From a virus: DNA of 7,118 nt. The position numbers and the translations under genes are program-made. The stretch lies in the UHGV virus genome UHGV-0319381; one strand, 5' to 3'. Shown in pieces: positions 1 to 7,118 of the stretch (its first letter is position 1; the number at the start of each line of letters is the position of its first letter). Below the pieces are notes generated by a model. That model was not told the DNA's origin and ran no database searches. It saw only the letters and a program-made list of their open reading frames with translations.

Positions 1-108
1 TTTCACGCTCAGGTTTCCGCCATCACTATAAAACGTGTTTTTCTCCGCTGGCTTACCATGAAGTTTCCTTAGCAAGGTATCGCTCAGTTTGTTCATTGCT
101 CTGCTCAC
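1..108 (-). CDS. 5' fragment of a second, divergently oriented integrase copy (first 36 codons, MSRAMNKLSDTLL...), continuing beyond the window edge
   Basis: Minus-strand GTG at 108-106 preceded by the same GAGGGGG RBS (complement of 115-121); nucleotide-identical to 264-371. Whether the copy is full length cannot be seen. Confidence 0.4.
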   Translation of the reverse strand, partial: MSRAMNKLSDTLLRKLHGKPAEKNTFYSDGGNLSVK

Positions 109-125
109 GTTTTACCCCCTCTTTA
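1..125. repeat. Left arm of a perfect inverted repeat; exact reverse complement of 247-371 and runs to the window edge
   Basis: Base-by-base comparison: position p pairs with 372-p for p=1..125; first mismatch at 126 vs 246. The arm carries the int RBS and first 36 codons in inverted orientation. Confidence 0.9.
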
Positions 126-131
126 CGAAAA

Positions 132-155
132 AGTGACTACACCAGTGACTACACC
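132..155. repeat. Tandem direct repeat AGTGACTACACC x2 in the spacer between the inverted int 5' ends
   Basis: Two perfect adjacent 12-bp copies at 132-143 and 144-155. Confidence 0.8.
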
Positions 156-246
156 GATCGTTGCACAAAGGGCTACAACGTGAAACAAGCTGGAACAAGG
201 AAAATCACAAATCTGTTGATAATCAAAAACATAATGCACAGCCTGA

Positions 247-371
247 TAAAGAGGGGGTAAAACGTGAGCAGAGCAATGAACAAACTGAGCGATACCTTGC
301 TAAGGAAACTTCATGGTAAGCCAGCGGAGAAAAACACGTTTTATAGTGATGGCGGAAACCTGAGCGTGAAA
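247..371. repeat. Right arm of the perfect inverted repeat (int RBS plus first 36 codons)
   Basis: Exact reverse complement of 1-125. Confidence 0.9.
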
Positions 372-1493
372 TATTTAACATCAGGGAAATTGACCTGGTA
401 TTTCACATACAGGGCCGGAACGGGAAGGGAGACACGACCCGAACGCATTAAGCTGGGAAGTTATCCTGATCTGAGCCTGAAAGCAGCCAGGGAAAAAGCC
501 GCACAGTGTCGCACATGGCTGGCTGAGGGGAAAAATCCACGTCATGAGATGAATTACACCGTACAGGAAGCGTTAAAGCCCGTAACGGTTGGCGATGCGC
601 TCACCTACTGGCTTGAGTCTTACGTAAAGGAAAACCGCGTGGATTATATCGCCCTGAAAAGGCGACTTAATAATCACGTAATACAGCAGATTGGTGCTAT
701 GCCGCTGGATAAATGCGAGCTACGGCACTGGCTGGCCTGTTTTGACCAGGTGGCAAAGCGAACGCCTGTTACTGCCGGATTCGTGCTACAGGCGTGCAAA
801 CAGGCGCTTAAGTTCTGCCGTAGGCGGCGCTATGCAATCAGCAACGTTCTGGACGATCTGAACGTGGCGGACGTTGGGAAAAAACCGGATATAAGCGAAC
901 GTGTCTTAAGTAACAAAGAACTTGGCGAATTATTGCAGGCACTGGACAAAAAAATATTTTCCCCTTACTACGTCGCGTTAATCCGCCTCCTGATTGTCTT
1001 CGGAGCCAGGACGGTAGAACTGAGGCTATCGGAGATCGGGGAGTGGGATTTTACGGAAATGCTATGGACCGTTCCGAAGGAGCACAGCAAAACGAAGGTC
1101 GCAATATTCCGGCCCATACCGGAAGCGATCCTGCCGTTCGTCACGCAGCTGGTGGAGCAGAACAGGCACACGGGCTTATTGCTGGGGGAAGTGAAACAGG
1201 AGGCCAGCGTATCGCAGTATGGAAGATTAGCGCACAGGAGGCTTAATCATCCTCACTGGTCACTGCATGACATCCGGCGCACCTTTACAACCATGCTGAA
1301 CGATTTAGGCGTTGATCCGCATGTCGTGGAGCAGCTTACAGGTCATCAGATGCCAGGAATGCAGCGAGTTTATAATCATTCCCGTTATCTGGATGCTAAA
1401 CGCAATGCGCTGGATATGTGGATGGAGCGGTTAGGGATACTGGCGGGAACACATGAAAACGTAACCACGCTACCAGTAGCCAGAAGAAAATAA
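264..1493 (+). CDS. int: Site-specific tyrosine integrase, P4-type (409 aa)
   Basis: GTG start with GAGGGGG RBS 6 nt upstream. The N-terminus (KLSDT...GGNLSVKYLTSGKLTWYFTYR) aligns by eye with the N-terminal arm-binding region of CP4-57 IntA-like integrases. C-terminal tyrosine-recombinase signatures are present: ARTVELR, HDIRRTF, and Tyr in VYNHSRYLD. Confidence 0.9.
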   Translation: MSRAMNKLSDTLLRKLHGKPAEKNTFYSDGGNLSVKYLTSGKLTWYFTYRAGTGRETRPERIKLGSYPDLSLKAAREKAAQCRTWLAEGKNPRHEMNYTVQEALKPVTVGDALTYWLESYVKENRVDYIALKRRLNNHVIQQIGAMPLDKCELRHWLACFDQVAKRTPVTAGFVLQACKQALKFCRRRRYAISNVLDDLNVADVGKKPDISERVLSNKELGELLQALDKKIFSPYYVALIRLLIVFGARTVELRLSEIGEWDFTEMLWTVPKEHSKTKVAIFRPIPEAILPFVTQLVEQNRHTGLLLGEVKQEASVSQYGRLAHRRLNHPHWSLHDIRRTFTTMLNDLGVDPHVVEQLTGHQMPGMQRVYNHSRYLDAKRNALDMWMERLGILAGTHENVTTLPVARRK

Positions 1494-1510
1494 TTTTTTT
1501 CGTGTTTTTT

Positions 1511-1526
1511 CAGTATGCGCATACTG
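1511..1526. repeat. Perfect 16-bp palindrome CAGTATGCGCATACTG just downstream of int
   Basis: Self-complementary 8+8 bp; preceded, not followed, by T-runs, so not a canonical intrinsic terminator on the + strand. Confidence 0.7.
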
Positions 1527-1532
1527 GATATG

Positions 1533-1586
1533 CGAACAGATACAACATGCAACAATGAGCAACAATGCGGAACAACTACGAACAAG
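1533..1586. repeat. Helically phased AACAA-type repeats (6 units at about 10-bp spacing), including GCAACAATG x2
   Basis: AACAGA, ACAACA, AACAAT, AACAAT, AACAAC, AACAAG recur about every 10 bp; GCAACAATG at 1549-1557 and 1559-1567. Confidence 0.6.
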
Positions 1587-1680
1587 AGACGAAAAAGTGT
1601 ACGGATTTATAAGTAGCTGATTTTTAATGTGTTACTGGTTTTTTATACACTAGCGAATCACTCTTTAAATAGCGAGAAAA

Positions 1681-1707
1681 AAGGCATGAAACAATATTTT
1701 ATGCCTT
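1681..1707 (-). terminator. Possible intrinsic terminator (7-bp stem AAGGCAT/ATGCCTT, 13-nt loop), better formed on the minus strand
   Basis: On the minus strand the hairpin is followed by TTTTTCT; on the plus strand it is followed by TGTATT only. Confidence 0.25.
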
Positions 1708-1867
1708 TGTATTAACATGAATTTAAATGATTTTATCCTGATTATTCCTGTTTCTGTAAACCATACGACCTCAACATTTGCCAACTCTGAATCATCCTGA
1801 CACAATCAGACACATCCCAACGCAATAGAACACGAAATAACTCTTTAAGAAACGAAAGGGGGCAATA

Positions 1868-2056
1868 GTGTTAAGCACTGATCGGTTTATACGTGAAAAA
1901 GAATGCGAAAAGCTAACAGGCCTTAGCCGCTCATGCCGCTACCGCCTGGAAAAGGCCGGACAATTCCCATCACGTCGTAAACTTGGCGGTCGTTCCGTTG
2001 GCTGGTCTTTATCCGAGGTTCTGGCCTGGAAGGATAGCTGCAAGGCAGTTCATTAA
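1868..2056 (+). CDS. alpA: AlpA-family transcriptional regulator / excisionase-like DNA-binding protein (62 aa)
   Basis: GTG start with GGGGG RBS 5 nt upstream. The sequence (LTGLSRSCRYRLEKAGQFPSRRKLGGRSVGWSLSEVLAWK) matches the AlpA pattern (TG..R...Y......FP....LG..SVGW...E...W) and sits directly downstream of int, as in P4-like and PICI elements. Confidence 0.85.
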   Translation: MLSTDRFIREKECEKLTGLSRSCRYRLEKAGQFPSRRKLGGRSVGWSLSEVLAWKDSCKAVH

Positions 2057-2202
2057 TCACGCTGGCGGCACACAGCCGCCACACATCAATCATCTGAACA
2101 CAGAGCTATAACCATGAAGATTGAATATACGCCAGAACGTGGGCGGGGATTCGTTCGCCCTGGTGAGACTGGAAAACCACAAAATTGGGGTTTTTCAGGC
2201 AT

Positions 2203-2230
2203 AAAAAAAGCGGCCCCGAAATGGAGCCGC
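2203..2230 (-). terminator. Probable intrinsic terminator for the minus-strand RHH/57-aa cassette (possibly bidirectional)
   Basis: Stem GCGGC (2210-2214) pairs with GCCGC (2226-2230); on the minus strand it is followed by a T7 run (complement of A-run 2203-2209). It lies about 95 bp past the minus-strand stop at 2326. Confidence 0.4.
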
Positions 2231-2325
2231 CTTTCTGAACAGATAACACGCTGCGCCGTTTGTGTGTGTGATCCCAAACATAAGCACGGGGATGATAGCC
2301 GCTATCAGGCTGGTGGGCAATGCAA

Positions 2326-2499
2326 TCAGTCTGGTTCAGTTCGTTGCCATACCTGCAATGAGCGCTTTTCCCTGTACTCTTTAAGGAATTGCTCAAGGGC
2401 AAAAGCACATGGCGCGAATCTTTCTGATTCATGCTCTATCTTTCTGCGCCGTCTTTTCCGTGCCGGTGATAATGTTTTGGTCAATTCTTTATCGGTCAT
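2326..2499 (-). CDS. Hypothetical small basic protein (57 aa, MTDKELTKTLSPARKRRRRKIEHESERF...)
   Basis: ATG at 2499 with AGGA 7 nt upstream; same strand as and 57 bp downstream of the RHH gene; followed by the terminator-like hairpin. An alternative start at 2514 gives 62 aa. No family recognised. Confidence 0.3.
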   Translation of the reverse strand: MTDKELTKTLSPARKRRRRKIEHESERFAPCAFALEQFLKEYREKRSLQVWQRTEPD

Positions 2500-2556
2500 T
2501 GTGTTGTCCTGCATAGCAATGCGCCGTAATACCTCACACCACGGCGCTGATAGTGA

Positions 2557-2862
2557 TTATTCTGATTCTTTGGCCTTGCGGCGCTGTAGTTCTTCACGAG
2601 CGATGGCGATAAGTTGCCCGAGTTCTTCCGTAGCTTTAATACCAATTTTTTCCACTTGCGCCAATGCATCGAGAGAAGAAATCAGAGGATTTTCACTGCT
2701 TCCTTCTGCCTGGCGGCGGGCGATCTCCCCGCGCATGGCGGTTACTATGAATCCGGCGTTGCTTTCGCCGTCCAGTTTTACGGATTCCATGCCATCAAAA
2801 GCATCATGTGGGATACGAATTGAAATCTGTTTTGATTTGTCGTTGATAGTGTTTTTTGCCAT
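2557..2862 (-). CDS. Arc/Mnt-like ribbon-helix-helix DNA-binding protein, candidate repressor (101 aa)
   Basis: ATG at 2862 with AGGAGA RBS 6 nt upstream (complement of 2869-2874). The N-terminus KQISIRIPHDAFDGMESVKLDGESNAGFIVTAMRGEI fits the RHH pattern of a beta-strand with R-x-P followed by two helices. It is divergent from the rightward operon, with operators between them. Confidence 0.55.
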   Translation of the reverse strand: MAKNTINDKSKQISIRIPHDAFDGMESVKLDGESNAGFIVTAMRGEIARRQAEGSSENPLISSLDALAQVEKIGIKATEELGQLIAIAREELQRRKAKESE

Positions 2863-2884
2863 GTGCATTCTCCTAAACAAAAGA

Positions 2885-2960
2885 TGTGATTCAGTATACA
2901 CAAAAAAGAATCACAAAAAACACTTGACCTGTGATTCAGTTGAATTTAATTTAAATCACA
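2885..2960. promoter_or_regulatory. Divergent promoter/operator region: two copies of a palindromic operator TGTGATTCAGT-N-(G/A)AATCACA flanking a TTGACC -35 box
   Basis: Operator 1: TGTGATTC 2885-2892 with GAATCACA 2908-2915. Operator 2: TGTGATTC 2930-2937 with AAATCACA 2953-2960. The two are 45 bp apart. TTGACC at 2924-2929, then 17 bp to TAATTT at 2947-2952, so operator 2 overlaps the putative rightward promoter. Confidence 0.45.
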
Positions 2961-3049
2961 CCTCAGTAAGAGGATGTAAACGACAACGCCCCGAACTGTT
3001 TGCGGCAGTAGCGGGGCGTCTAACCAAACCGTTAACAGGAGTAACGATT

Positions 3050-3247
3050 ATGGCTGGAACACAGCATACCCCACGTCTGGCGCACACACAAACTGCCTTT
3101 GTGTGGCGTTTTCTGGCACTAAGTGCCGGAGAATCTCAAATCATCCACGTAACCGCCTGGACGGAACGCGAAGCGCGTAGCCGTTGCCCGTCCGGTTGTG
3201 TTGCTGTATTCGCCGCCCGTATTCGTCAGGGGTCACATCATGCGTAA
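3050..3247 (+). CDS. Small protein paralog A (65 aa) with FVWRF...TEREAR...ARIRQG..HA motifs; possibly the Icd-like/Ash-like small-protein family of P4-like elements (name uncertain)
   Basis: ATG at 3050 with ACAGGAG RBS and 8-nt spacer. Paralogous to 3534-3704. It is the only part of the long 2114-3247 ORF that looks coding. Confidence 0.55.
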   Translation: MAGTQHTPRLAHTQTAFVWRFLALSAGESQIIHVTAWTEREARSRCPSGCVAVFAARIRQGSHHA

Positions 3248-3533
3248 AAACCGCTTGCAAAAAATTATCACGGGGCTGTATGCTTCCCCCGTCGCCCACA
3301 TGGCGACCGGGTTTGACAGCCTGAATACTACAGCGGACAGCCGCTTACATTCCGATATGCGGTTTTTTTGTGTCCGTAAACCTACCCATACCCGCATTAT
3401 GGCGGGGCGTAACGGGGGAGCCTTTGCGCTCGCTGGTTCCTGTAGTGCCAGTCTGTCAACCCTGTTACGTCTCGCCACCATGTTTGACAGCGTAGTAGCG
3501 AGACTCCTTAATTTCACTACAGGAGCCTTTCAC

Positions 3534-3704
3534 ATGGCTGTATTCGCACGCCCTTATTTTGTCTGGCGCTTTATGCAGTGCCTGACAGACAGCATTGCAA
3601 TATTCACCGTTACCGCTGCCACTGAGCGCGAAGCACGTGCACAGCTGCCGCACGCACATCTGATTTTTGTCGCCCGTATTCGTCAGGGGGTGTGCCATGC
3701 CTGA
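3534..3704 (+). CDS. Small protein paralog B (56 aa) with the same FVWRF...TEREAR...FVARIRQG..HA motifs
   Basis: ATG at 3534 with identical ACAGGAG RBS and 8-nt spacer; shares a 19-bp identical stretch (GCCCGTATTCGTCAGGGG) with paralog A. A possible TTGACA-N17-CTTAAT promoter lies at 3484-3512. An alternative in-frame start at 3240 (154 aa) is not excluded. Confidence 0.55.
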   Translation: MAVFARPYFVWRFMQCLTDSIAIFTVTAATEREARAQLPHAHLIFVARIRQGVCHA

Positions 3705-4017
3705 TATGTCAAATTACCAGTACCTGATTAATCCGCATTTTAACTGTGAGCATGATATTGCTAAAAAAGTTTATTCCGCTGCGGATGGGGCTACTGACAA
3801 TATATCAATGGCTGTTGCGTCAATTGGTAGCCTGATGTGGCATGCGTCAGAAAATGAGGACTATGACGAAAAGGCCATGCGCATTGATATGGGTAATATT
3901 GGTTTGTTACTGGCAATGCTTGGACATTTTGATATTTCGTTACGGTGCACCATTGGAAATGCCACAGATGCATTAAATGCTATAAAGAAAGCGAATACTG
4001 ATTCAAATCGGGGATAA
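3697..4017 (+). CDS. Hypothetical protein (106 aa)
   Basis: ATG at 3697 with GGGGG RBS 6 nt upstream; start overlaps the stop of paralog B (ATGCCTGA). No family recognised. Confidence 0.5.
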   Translation: MPDMSNYQYLINPHFNCEHDIAKKVYSAADGATDNISMAVASIGSLMWHASENEDYDEKAMRIDMGNIGLLLAMLGHFDISLRCTIGNATDALNAIKKANTDSNRG

Positions 4018-4023
4018 ATAATC

Positions 4024-4323
4024 ATGAGAGCGTATTTATCTGGCTTTACTGCCAGCGGTTATGCACACCCCAAAATTATCCCCGGCGCTATTTATCTGGA
4101 TAAGAACGGTAACAGAGTAACGGTAAAAGAACTGATGTTTGACCGTGTGTATTTTATTCGTGATGGCTATTCATTTCATAGTTCGCTGAACGTGGAGATC
4201 TTTATTAGCAGATTCCGGCGGGAAATCCCGCTTTCCAGAAATAACCATGTGTCATGTATGGATGTTGATAAAAAACTACAGGAACTGAAAAACATGATTG
4301 CCGCGTGGAGAGAGCAGAAATGA
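4024..4323 (+). CDS. Hypothetical protein (99 aa) immediately upstream of, and translationally coupled to, the alpha-like gene
   Basis: ATG at 4024 with GGGGA RBS about 9 nt upstream; its TGA stop overlaps the ATG of the next gene (ATGA at 4320-4323). Confidence 0.5.
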   Translation: MRAYLSGFTASGYAHPKIIPGAIYLDKNGNRVTVKELMFDRVYFIRDGYSFHSSLNVEIFISRFRREIPLSRNNHVSCMDVDKKLQELKNMIAAWREQK

Positions 4324-6137
4324 AAAAAGCGCCAAATTTAAAACACCAGCCGCGTGACAAAATGACGGAAGTCATCATTTTTGCGGGTAGTGATGCGTGG
4401 GCACATGCGAAGCAGTGGCAGGAACAGGACGGGCGACTGGCTGGCGATAACGTGCCACCTGTCTGGCTTGGAGAGCAACAACTTGCCGAACTGGACAACC
4501 TGCAAATCGTACCGGACGGACGCTATCGCGTGCGTCTCTACCAGGCGGGGTTATTGCGTCCGGGGCTTGTTAATACCATCGGGCAGAAACTGGCAGCGGC
4601 AGGTGTCAGGGATGCTGATTATTACCCTGAAGGAATGCACAGCCAGAAACGGGAGAACTGGCGCGAATATCTGGAACGTGAGCGGGGAGAGCTGGCGGAA
4701 AAGAAAAAGGTAGTTGAACTGCCTGTAAAGAAAAAAGAGCGGGTAAAAGACGATAACGCTTCATCACTGGCGCTTAACCAGATGGGAGCAAGTCAACGCG
4801 GCGAAGTTCTCCTGGCACATTATGGCGGTGAACTGGCGATTCATGCTGACTCTGACACTGTTCACTATTACAACGGCGTTGTATGGGAGCCAGTACAGGA
4901 TAAAGAATTACAGCGAGCTATGGCGCAGATTTTCATTGATGCGGAGATCAGCTATTCGCAGAACGCCATTAAATCGGCGGTCGATACCATGAAGTTAAGT
5001 TTGCCTGTAATGGGGAATACAGCCCGTAACCTGATTGGATTCAGTAACGGTGTTTTTGATACCCGGACAGGCGATTTTCGGGAGCATAACAAAAACGACT
5101 GGTTGTTAATTGCCAGTGAATTACCTTTCAGCCCACCAGCAGAGGGGGAAACGCTGGCAACACATGCGCCGAATTTCTGGAAGTGGTTACGCCGTTCGGT
5201 GGCTGAGAATGACCGCAAGGCGGATCGCGTACTGGCTGCATTATTCATGGTGCTGGCGAACCGGTACGACTGGCAGTTATTCATTGAGGTAACAGGTCCA
5301 GGGGGAAGTGGTAAAAGCGTGATGGCGGAGATTTGCACCATGCTGGCGGGTAAGGCCAACACGGTATCGGCAAGCATGAAGGCGCTGGAAGATGCCAGGG
5401 AACGCGCGTTAGTGGTTGGCTTTTCGCTGATTATCATGCCGGATATGACCCGTTACGCTGGTGATGGCGCAGGAATTAAGGCCATTACAGGCGGTGACAA
5501 GGTGGCAATCGACCCGAAGCATAAAGCCCCCTACTCAACACGCATTCAGGCGGTAGTGTTGGCGGTGAACAATAACGCCATGTCATTCAGTGACCGCAGC
5601 GGGGGGATTTCACGTCGTCGGGTGATATTCAATTTTTCGGAGGTTGTACCGGAAAACGAACGCGACCCCATGCTGGCAGAAAAAATAGAAGGAGAGCTGG
5701 CGGTTGTGATTCGCCACCTGCTTACTCGTTTTTCTGACCAGGACGCAGCTAAACGCCTGCTGTATGAGCAGCAGAAATCAGAAGAAGCTCTGGTGATAAA
5801 ACGCGAGGGCGATTCGCTGGTGGACTTCTGCGGCTATCTCATGTCGTCGGTAATGTGTGATGGTCTGTTAGTGGGTAATGCCGAAATTATTCCGTTCAGT
5901 CCGCGCAGGTATCTTTATCACGCCTATCTGGCATATATGAGGGCACACGGATTCGGTAAACCTGTAACACTGACGCGCTTCGGTAAAGATATGCCGGGGG
6001 CAATGGCGGAATATGGCAGGGAGTATATGAAACGGAAAACGAAGCACGGTTTGCGTTCAAACGTGACACTGACGGAGGAATCAGAAGACTGGATGCCATC
6101 ATGTGTATCGGTCACTAATGACGACAGCAAAAATTAA
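4320..6137 (+). CDS. P4 alpha-like replication protein: SF3-type helicase / phage-plasmid primase P4-family C-terminal region (605 aa)
   Basis: ATG at 4320 with GGAG RBS; an alternative GTG at 4305 gives 610 aa. Walker A VTGPGGSGKS at about residues 325-333 and Walker B-like hydrophobic-D (LIIMPD). A long C-terminal region is followed immediately by TGTTCACC iterons. The N-terminal roughly 300 aa carry no primase signature I can recognise by eye. Confidence 0.8.
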   Translation: MKKAPNLKHQPRDKMTEVIIFAGSDAWAHAKQWQEQDGRLAGDNVPPVWLGEQQLAELDNLQIVPDGRYRVRLYQAGLLRPGLVNTIGQKLAAAGVRDADYYPEGMHSQKRENWREYLERERGELAEKKKVVELPVKKKERVKDDNASSLALNQMGASQRGEVLLAHYGGELAIHADSDTVHYYNGVVWEPVQDKELQRAMAQIFIDAEISYSQNAIKSAVDTMKLSLPVMGNTARNLIGFSNGVFDTRTGDFREHNKNDWLLIASELPFSPPAEGETLATHAPNFWKWLRRSVAENDRKADRVLAALFMVLANRYDWQLFIEVTGPGGSGKSVMAEICTMLAGKANTVSASMKALEDARERALVVGFSLIIMPDMTRYAGDGAGIKAITGGDKVAIDPKHKAPYSTRIQAVVLAVNNNAMSFSDRSGGISRRRVIFNFSEVVPENERDPMLAEKIEGELAVVIRHLLTRFSDQDAAKRLLYEQQKSEEALVIKREGDSLVDFCGYLMSSVMCDGLLVGNAEIIPFSPRRYLYHAYLAYMRAHGFGKPVTLTRFGKDMPGAMAEYGREYMKRKTKHGLRSNVTLTEESEDWMPSCVSVTNDDSKN

Positions 6138-6151
6138 ACTTATGGAATAAC

Positions 6152-6378
6152 TGTTCACCACTGTTCACCCTGTTATAAATATCTTTTATATCAGTATATT
6201 ATATGGTGAACAGTTATTTGTGAACTGTTCACCAAACTATTCACTGTTCACCTTTTTGATTATTTATTGAGCTTTAAGGGTGAACAGTGGTGAACAGTTG
6301 GTGAATAGTTTTTGTGAAACTGTTCACCCCTTAACATTATGAATAAAAAGGGAAAATCTCAAAAGGTGAACAGGTGAA
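6152..6378. repeat. Iteron array, putative origin of replication (crr/ori-like): about 11 copies of TGTTCACC in both orientations around an AT-rich core
   Basis: Forward TGTTCACC at 6152, 6162, 6226, 6245, 6321. Reverse GGTGAACA at 6205, 6279, 6289, 6365, with degenerate copies at 6300 and 6373. Several copies sit at 10-11 bp phasing. AT-rich stretch at 6171-6204. Confidence 0.75.
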
Positions 6379-6424
6379 GGGTTAAAATGCAAAAATTTTA
6401 TTTTATTGCTGTGAGGTAAAGCCT

Positions 6425-6670
6425 GTGACAACGAAGCACGCAAAAAAACCACAATCTCACGCCCTTGATTTGACAGAACACTGGCTGAGGGTGGCGATAA
6501 AAATCATCGACCGCAACGCGGGAGAAGGGTACGCAAAAGCACATCCCGAACTGATAAGCGCATTCATGACCACGGCGGCAGCAAACTTTGCCACGCTGAC
6601 AGAACGGGAGATTGCCGAAGCGGAACAGGTGACAACCATCAACGTTAAAACCGGAGAGCAGACAGCATGA
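6425..6670 (+). CDS. Hypothetical protein (81 aa)
   Basis: GTG at 6425 with GAGG RBS 8 nt upstream; stop overlaps the start of the following SSB-like ORF (ATGA at 6667-6670). No family recognised. Confidence 0.4.
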   Translation: MTTKHAKKPQSHALDLTEHWLRVAIKIIDRNAGEGYAKAHPELISAFMTTAAANFATLTEREIAEAEQVTTINVKTGEQTA

Positions 6671-7118
6671 CAGCACAGATAGCGGCTTACGGGCGGCTGG
6701 TGGCTGACCCGCAGTTAAAGACCACCAGCAAAGGGACACAAATGGCGATGGCGAGTATGGCGGTTCCCCTGCCGTGCAGCCAGGCAGATGACGGAACGGC
6801 GACGATGTGGTTATCTGTCCTGGCGTTTGGCAGACAGGCCGACGCACTGGCAAAACACCACAAAGGCGAACTGGTGAGCGTGGCGGGTAACATGCAGGTG
6901 AGCCAGTGGACAGGCCAGAACGGGGAAACGCGGCAGGGCTGGCAGGTTATTGCAGACAGCGTAATCAGTTGCTTAAAACGGTATGTTATCCCCGTACGGA
7001 TCAACATTTCCCGCCTGTTGTTTTGCCCTGTTCAGCGCGTCAGTAGCCTGGCCCTGTTGAGCTTTTTTGCCGCCCGGTCGCGCCGTTCGCGCACTGATTA
7101 CGCTGTCTGCAATAACCT
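6667..7118 (+). CDS. SSB-like OB-fold single-stranded DNA-binding protein, 3'-partial (runs off the window)
   Basis: ATG at 6667 with GGAG RBS. IAAYGRLVADPQLKTTSKGTQMAMASMAV...WLSVLAFGRQADALAKHHKGELVSVAGNMQVSQWTGQNGETRQGWQVIADSV aligns by eye with the bacterial SSB OB-fold pattern (VGRLG.DPE.R.T..G...A.F..A...W....A.G..AE.A..YL.KGS.V...G.L....W.D..G..R....V.A). No stop before the window end; the region after the OB fold is atypical (hydrophobic/basic rather than Gly-rich acidic tail). Confidence 0.55.
   Translation, partial: MTAQIAAYGRLVADPQLKTTSKGTQMAMASMAVPLPCSQADDGTATMWLSVLAFGRQADALAKHHKGELVSVAGNMQVSQWTGQNGETRQGWQVIADSVISCLKRYVIPVRINISRLLFCPVQRVSSLALLSFFAARSRRSRTDYAVCNN

Follow-up and report, generated by a model that had tools for sequence, protein, structure and literature searches.

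The window, the whole stretch of DNA that was analyzed, is 7,118 nt long. Near its left edge lies an integrase gene (int; 264-1493), a 409-amino-acid (aa) ORF that starts with GTG and whose product matches the Pfam families Arm-DNA-bind_3 and Phage_integrase. Further to the right are an alpA-like gene, a DUF4222 gene, a gene for a D5-type primase, an 81-aa ORF, and ssb (Table 1); the other ORFs of the island body are unannotated. The AT-rich interval at 6136-6380 contains GGTGAACAG repeats in both orientations, with nine exact copies and one that has a single mismatch, and the whole window has 14 matches to this motif versus 1.5 expected. Judged from its sequence, this cluster resembles an iteron-type origin from which the island would replicate.

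Table 1. Features of the 7,118-nt window, with the segments that make up the two terminal structures
Feature	Position	Strand	Remark
Left foldback arm	1..125	-	Reverse complement of 247-371; not the native left flank of the island
Left spacer S1	126..246	-	Native 121 nt directly upstream of int, flipped; attL-side arm; contiguous with 1-125
Junction J1	246..247	.	Strand-switch join, N1 (minus) to N122 (plus); 0 nt microhomology
Colinear island body	247..6969	+	int through the first 101 ssb codons (6667-6969)
alpA-like	1868-2056	+	In island body
DUF4222	4024-4323	+	Pfam
D5-type primase	4305/4320-6137	+	Pfam
Iteron-like cluster	about 6136-6380	.	Between the primase gene and the 81-aa ORF
81-aa ORF	6425-6670	+	In island body
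Junction J2	6969..6970	.	Strand-switch join, N6844 (plus) to N6967 (minus), inside ssb; 2 nt microhomology
Right spacer S2	6970..7092	-	Native ssb 3' end, flipped: 39 codons, stop, 3 nt
Right foldback arm	7093..7118	-	Exact reverse complement of 6944-6969, up to the window edge

Relatives of this island are inserted in tqsA. In one intact relative (L005; GCA_900449035.1), the island is about 10.8 kb long, and the 9-nt direct repeat ATAACAGCA is found at both of its borders in tqsA (9817-9825 and 20662-20670). This 9-nt sequence is a candidate att core. A tandem pair of GGTGTAGTCACT sites lies just upstream of int (window 132-155, minus strand). In L005, the pair, within a 76-nt block, appears again near the opposite end of the island, with 76% identity between the two copies of the block (9904-9979 and 20516-20591). 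The pairs are probably the integrase arm-type binding sites of attL and attR. The original prediction had remarked that no tRNA was visible, and ARAGORN found none in the window; there is also none in the intact relative. Integration adjacent to a tRNA gene was therefore rejected, and the tRNA or tmRNA neighbor that had been expected for a P4-type integrase does not apply to an island whose relatives reside in tqsA.

Following ssb, the intact relatives carry lambda-E-type or HK97-type capsid genes and packaging modules. The boundary at the ssb stop codon is sharp and mosaic: the int-to-ssb module is common to related islands (L011-L020), after which different modules follow (a lambda-E-type capsid with Nu1; HK97 capsid, protease, portal, and TerL; or ProQ-like or PerC-like genes), and these mosaic relatives occupy several chromosomal sites. 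With an Arm-DNA-binding integrase, an AlpA-like regulator, a primase module at one end, and direct-repeat borders, the layout is that of a phage-inducible chromosomal island (PICI)-like satellite, a name that we use descriptively. E. coli PICI-like satellites likewise combine a P4-type integrase, an AlpA-like regulator, a D5-type primase, and ssb, and their insertion site is a chromosomal gene, with a short direct repeat; the window differs from them in holding the left 7 kb only. Deposited phage and satellite records naming the element were limited to a distant primase match (78.7%). The underlying sequence is most likely an ordinary satellite-like island of E. coli inserted in tqsA.

The left edge of the window is occupied by an inverted repeat. 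A repeat search and alignment established that positions 1-125 are the reverse complement of positions 247-371, with 100% identity over 125 nt and 121 nt between the arms, and that the match reaches base 1, just as the original prediction had described. A perfect match of this length cannot arise by chance. The inner edge of the repeat is sharp (base 126 is C, and the complement of base 246 is T), and the right arm comprises the 17 nt that precede the integrase start codon (GTG at 264) and the first 36 codons. The spacer had been described as not self-complementary, which agrees with DNA folding, by which its fold was unremarkable compared with shuffled sequences (z = 0.32). It had also been called unique, and this description did not hold: the spacer is the native 121 nt upstream of the same int on the opposite strand, and window positions 1-246 form one contiguous minus-strand block.

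A second perfect inverted repeat is present at the right edge, where 6944-6969 and 7093-7118 match over 26 nt with 100% identity around a 123-nt spacer. This right-edge repeat (6944-7118) was absent from the original prediction. Taking the window to be the whole contig, both outer arms reach its edges, at bases 1 and 7118. The presence of the same structure at both edges, with spacers of 121 and 123 nt, points to a process acting on the ends of the sequence rather than to integrase-promoter biology.

Any arm-loop-arm structure reads as arm, reverse complement of the loop, and arm on the other strand. The orientation of the loop in an assembly is therefore uninformative, and each end amounts to one chimeric junction. 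We constructed a native model, N (6967 nt), in which the spacers at 126-246 and 6970-7092 are both flipped. In terms of this model, the window equals rc(N1-246) + N122-6844 + rc(N6819-6967), where rc denotes the reverse complement, and it contains only two non-native joins, J1 (246|247) and J2 (6969|6970), each of which jumps about 122 nt to the opposite strand.

Flipping the spacers restored colinearity with the relatives. N aligned without gaps from its first to its last base with L005 (2 mismatches) and end to end with L008 (3 mismatches), both of which are independent E. coli assemblies, and it was 100% identical to two other contigs (L009 and L010) over the extent of those contigs. The segment 247-6969 is itself 100% identical to L005, and the top matches in 5,426 complete E. 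coli genomes all span exactly 247-6969, that is, the inner edges of the repeats. Window positions 1-246 aligned as a single minus-strand block with a complete genome (L001, 3125->2880). The true native left flank in L005 shares no bases with the left arm outward from the junction.

The same operation restored ssb, which is broken at 6969|6970 in the window. As assembled, the ssb frame enters 50 unrelated residues and has no stop. Translation of 6970-7092 on the opposite strand gives ARTARPGGKKAQQGQATDALNRAKQQAGNVDPYGDNIPF* (ARTARPGGKK...DNIPF*), which is the tail of SSB at its C terminus, including the acidic tip. Joining this segment to 6667-6969 yields a complete 140-aa SSB ending in ...DNIPF that belongs to the SSB family by Pfam. 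In 954 complete E. coli genomes, the right end occurs without a break in its flipped form. The only differences between N and L005 are at window positions 7004 and 7061, both within the final 123 nt; the two sequences agree at all of the remaining 6844 nt, and the random chance of both differences falling in the last 123 nt is about (123/6967)^2 = 3e-4. Both substitutions are non-synonymous in the restored SSB (G->A and D->V), and neither was found in any of the 5,426 complete E. coli genomes, in which the best match was 99.5%. Their clustering at the terminus suggests a poorly supported contig end.

We searched the same 5,426 complete genomes with 160-nt queries centered on J1 or J2. A match spanning J1 was found in none of the 777 genomes that hold the halves of the query, and the corresponding count for J2 was 0 of 587. 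In a complete genome, the halves of the J1 query lie 121 nt apart on opposite strands, as N predicts. No exact match to a 40-mer across J1 or J2 turned up in collections of genome, viral, or metagenome contigs; the native left join, which served as a positive control, was present in 7 viral contigs. The terminal foldback was likewise absent from 4 complete metagenome contigs of the same island. At the protein level, a native 60-aa hypothetical ORF that extends across N1 (L005 9831-10013, minus strand), antisense to the int start, was found in at least 1000 contigs. The window copy of this ORF (96-260, plus strand) crosses J1 and gives a 54-aa chimeric product. None of the junction-specific products (the 54-aa product of 96-260, a 52-aa product of 223-381, and a 150-aa read-through SSB) is on record.

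These searches bear directly on the second int start reading leftward that the original prediction had proposed. Under that proposal, two related islands would abut head to head, with a second integrase reading leftward from position 125. The left arm does run into the window edge, and related islands are common in E. coli genomes, with 2 matching places in the median genome and as many as 13. However, the arm is 100% identical to the start of the island's own int, and the "spacer" is the region upstream of that same int, unbroken on the other strand. A neighboring island would contribute its own attL or flank instead of joining at N122, and at the right end the same geometry is repeated within ssb. 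The identical integrase has entries in 74 blocks of the collection, and the normal pntB/tqsA flank was present at 8 of 8 places among the matches listed. With no sign of a second integrase gene and no head-to-head layout in independent assemblies, we consider this arrangement very unlikely.

The 121- and 123-nt segments could be invertible, phase-variable elements whose orientations were mixed by the assembler, and the original prediction had included an invertible promoter segment. In favor of this reading, a gene for a tyrosine recombinase is adjacent, and a promoter might lie in the left segment, given its position between the border of the island and the start of int. Real invertible segments in E. 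coli carry inverted repeats at their crossover sites (PMC4134206), whereas no inverted repeats above chance were found inside or outside the borders of either segment. A flipped segment would also require the junctions to be spanned in matching genomes, and neither the 777 (left) nor the 587 (right) included such a case. Furthermore, the right segment would be the coding 3' end of ssb, and after an inversion in place, positions 1-125 would hold the native left flank instead of an int copy. The chance that these segments are switches is in our estimation extremely small.

The sequence at the breakpoints offered nothing for recombination to act on. Complementarity is 0 nt at J1 and 2 nt at J2, and the true flanks outside N1 and N6967 are unlike the arms. 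An offset-tolerant search detected no inverted repeat longer than 5 nt within 25 nt of the four breakpoints, and about 70% of shuffled sequences reach 5 nt. Border inverted repeats of at most 5 nt, together with microhomology of 0 and 2 nt, provide no recombination substrate. Inspection of the four breakpoints by eye revealed no restriction-site or ligation signatures. Inverted repeats at both termini could in principle mark the covalently closed hairpin telomeres of a linear, N15-type replicon that had been read around the end. Such telomeres are expected to be spacer-free palindromes, and the repeats here enclose unstructured spacers of 121 and 123 nt; there is no protelomerase among the window's proteins by Pfam, and the "ends" would fall inside an integrated island and inside ssb. 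We regard hairpin telomeres as the least credible of the explanations, with a probability close to nil.

Only one biological model, ODIRA-like or tandem-inversion amplification, predicts a unit bounded by two inverted junctions. In bacterial tandem inversion duplication, an origin-containing segment lies between two inverted junctions that have short loops. Under this model, the replication module would have undergone inverted amplification in vivo, yielding an inverted triplication (TID/ODIRA-like) or a hairpin-capped linear "dog-bone"; template switching would have occurred at both ends of the origin-containing segment, and the assembler would have collapsed the copies. The window has two inverted junctions of the correct polarity that bound one unit, N1-N6967, and this unit holds the primase gene and the iteron-like putative origin. 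ODIRA predicts paired junctions with single-stranded loops (PMC4689423), and the ODIRA dog-bone or inverted triplication resembles the structure seen here in its two inverted junctions, short loops, and origin-containing segment (PMC4689423, PMC10766183). However, ODIRA and TID need short interrupted inverted repeats at each junction, and none beyond chance is present at J1 or J2; ODIRA has, moreover, been described in yeast and human and is not known to occur in phage satellites. Also counting against amplification, the island is very common and yet none of its other assemblies searched contains the junctions, J2 destroys ssb, and the two offsets differ by 2 nt, a similarity unexpected for independent events in vivo. 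Long, closely spaced inverted repeats are, in addition, poorly tolerated in sbcCD+ E. coli. We therefore judge inverted amplification, and with it template switching at both ends followed by collapse of the copies, to be improbable. A specific form of it, in which the foldbacks are real and the satellite's primase and iteron origin form an ODIRA-like dog-bone (a hairpin-capped linear or inverted-repeat amplicon) through strand switching at both forks, is slightly more doubtful; in such a dog-bone, the single-stranded loops of about 122 nt might correspond to the lagging-strand gap. Were the structure to exist in vivo, it would represent a first example, in a phage satellite, of inverted amplification that depends on an origin. 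We found nothing that favors such amplification over an artifact.

On the basis of the sequence comparisons above, the inverted repeats are very probably contig-end foldbacks, produced by a strand-switch artifact of assembly or library preparation and not belonging to the organism's genome. Among the four explanations originally offered, the assembly chimera is the one we favor; head-to-head islands, an inverted duplication, and an invertible promoter segment are not favored. A foldback has been defined as a segment on the opposite strand within 200 bp (PMC12870357). At both joins, the second segment is on the opposite strand with an offset, 121 or 123 nt, of less than 200 bp; the arms are at both edges of the assembled sequence; and independent assemblies of the same locus contain the native joins and do not reproduce the junctions.

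Structures of this kind have been described under several names. The authors of rnaSPAdes termed a chimeric connection with this topology a "double-strand hairpin" and noted the same for MDA, in which the polymerase switches to the opposite strand at a nearby position (PMC6736328). As in the window, correct sequence is joined to its own reverse complement, resulting in a partly palindromic contig (PMC6736328). Hairpin artifacts at contig ends, which others have screened for (PMC4134206), also resemble the structures here in their location and in having a loop that is readable either way (PMC6736328, PMC4134206). Foldbacks from library preparation or MDA are inverted, with a small offset and with proximity favored, features shared by the two joins (PMC12870357; PMC13141652; PMC1855051). 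Among MDA chimeras, 85% are inverted with an intervening offset, proximity being favored (PMC1855051).

The likeness is incomplete. Double-strand hairpins have been described mainly for RNA-seq, single-cell MDA, and PacBio, and foldbacks in long reads are usually near-symmetric about the read midpoint (PMC12870357; PMC13141652), unlike those in the window. Among proximal inverted MDA chimeras, 93.5% have at least 2 nt of complementarity (PMC1855051), and the absence of microhomology at J1, in contrast to these, counts against an artifact. The arm lengths also count against it: 125 and 26 nt fit no single k-mer size, and one assembler k for both arms was accordingly rejected. Canonical k-mers are, in addition, duplicated in the window up to k=125, so that the window is not a simple small-k unitig and would be allowed only at k of at least 126. 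A further point on this side is that N1 lies 36 nt inside the island, with its border placed at the ATAACAGCA repeat, and not at an obvious fork. Self-priming of cDNA at the ends of transcripts was also considered as a source of the foldbacks; no promoter-like site was seen near N1, and terminator-like hits near N6967 were confined to the minus strand, although a GC-rich stem followed by a T-run is present after ssb.

We infer that the joins arose in a laboratory or assembler step. The contig path would reach the end of native coverage, or a fork in the graph, at N1 and at N6967. From there, a chimeric join would carry it to the other strand, about 122 nt farther inward, where the same DNA would be re-read backwards, leaving an arm, the native terminal segment as a "spacer," and an arm. 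The most likely source of the joins is snap-back or template-switch molecules formed in library preparation or amplification, arising either when a 3' end folds back on itself and is elongated or when the polymerase jumps to the nearby opposite strand. Such molecules would be present at low frequency throughout the library, and assemblers would retain their joins only where a contig has no better extension, as at a coverage stop or fork. Extension restricted to such places would account for foldbacks at both ends, and the nearly equal offsets of 121 and 123 nt argue for one systematic process rather than local biology.

The surroundings of the right end are consistent with this scenario. N6967 lies 3 nt past the ssb stop, and similarity to related islands is lost at N6964 (window 6973, flipped) in 6 of 9 comparisons. 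The divergence point at N6964 would thus offer a short-read graph a natural fork or break point near N6967. The island family is often fragmented in assemblies; the 81-aa protein was found in 2,271 blocks, many of them with short contigs only.

The value of this result lies mainly in quality control, since the feature is, in our view, very likely not real biology. A terminal foldback may be misread as an inverted terminal repeat, a hairpin telomere, an invertible promoter, or a head-to-head duplication of a gene. It also disrupts genuine genes, in this case ssb, and gives rise to false ORFs, such as 96-260, 223-381, and the read-through SSB. A screen could ask two questions: whether the end of a contig reappears in reverse-complement form no more than a few hundred bases away, and whether flipping the loop restores colinearity with relatives. 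Such a screen would remove this class of terminal foldbacks ahead of biological interpretation.

Within the island body, a 377-aa ORF at 2114-3247 had no match in Pfam. RefSeq annotation of this region in the relatives is inconsistent: it appears as Icd-like fragments, as pseudogenes, as one 374-aa gene, or as a YlcI/YnfO-family gene on the other strand. Short (A/G)CAACA-like repeats occur at 1535-1590, just past the int stop codon (gatacaacatgcaacaatgagcaacaatgcggaacaactacgaacaag), and similar aacaag/acaacg motifs are present at 170-200.
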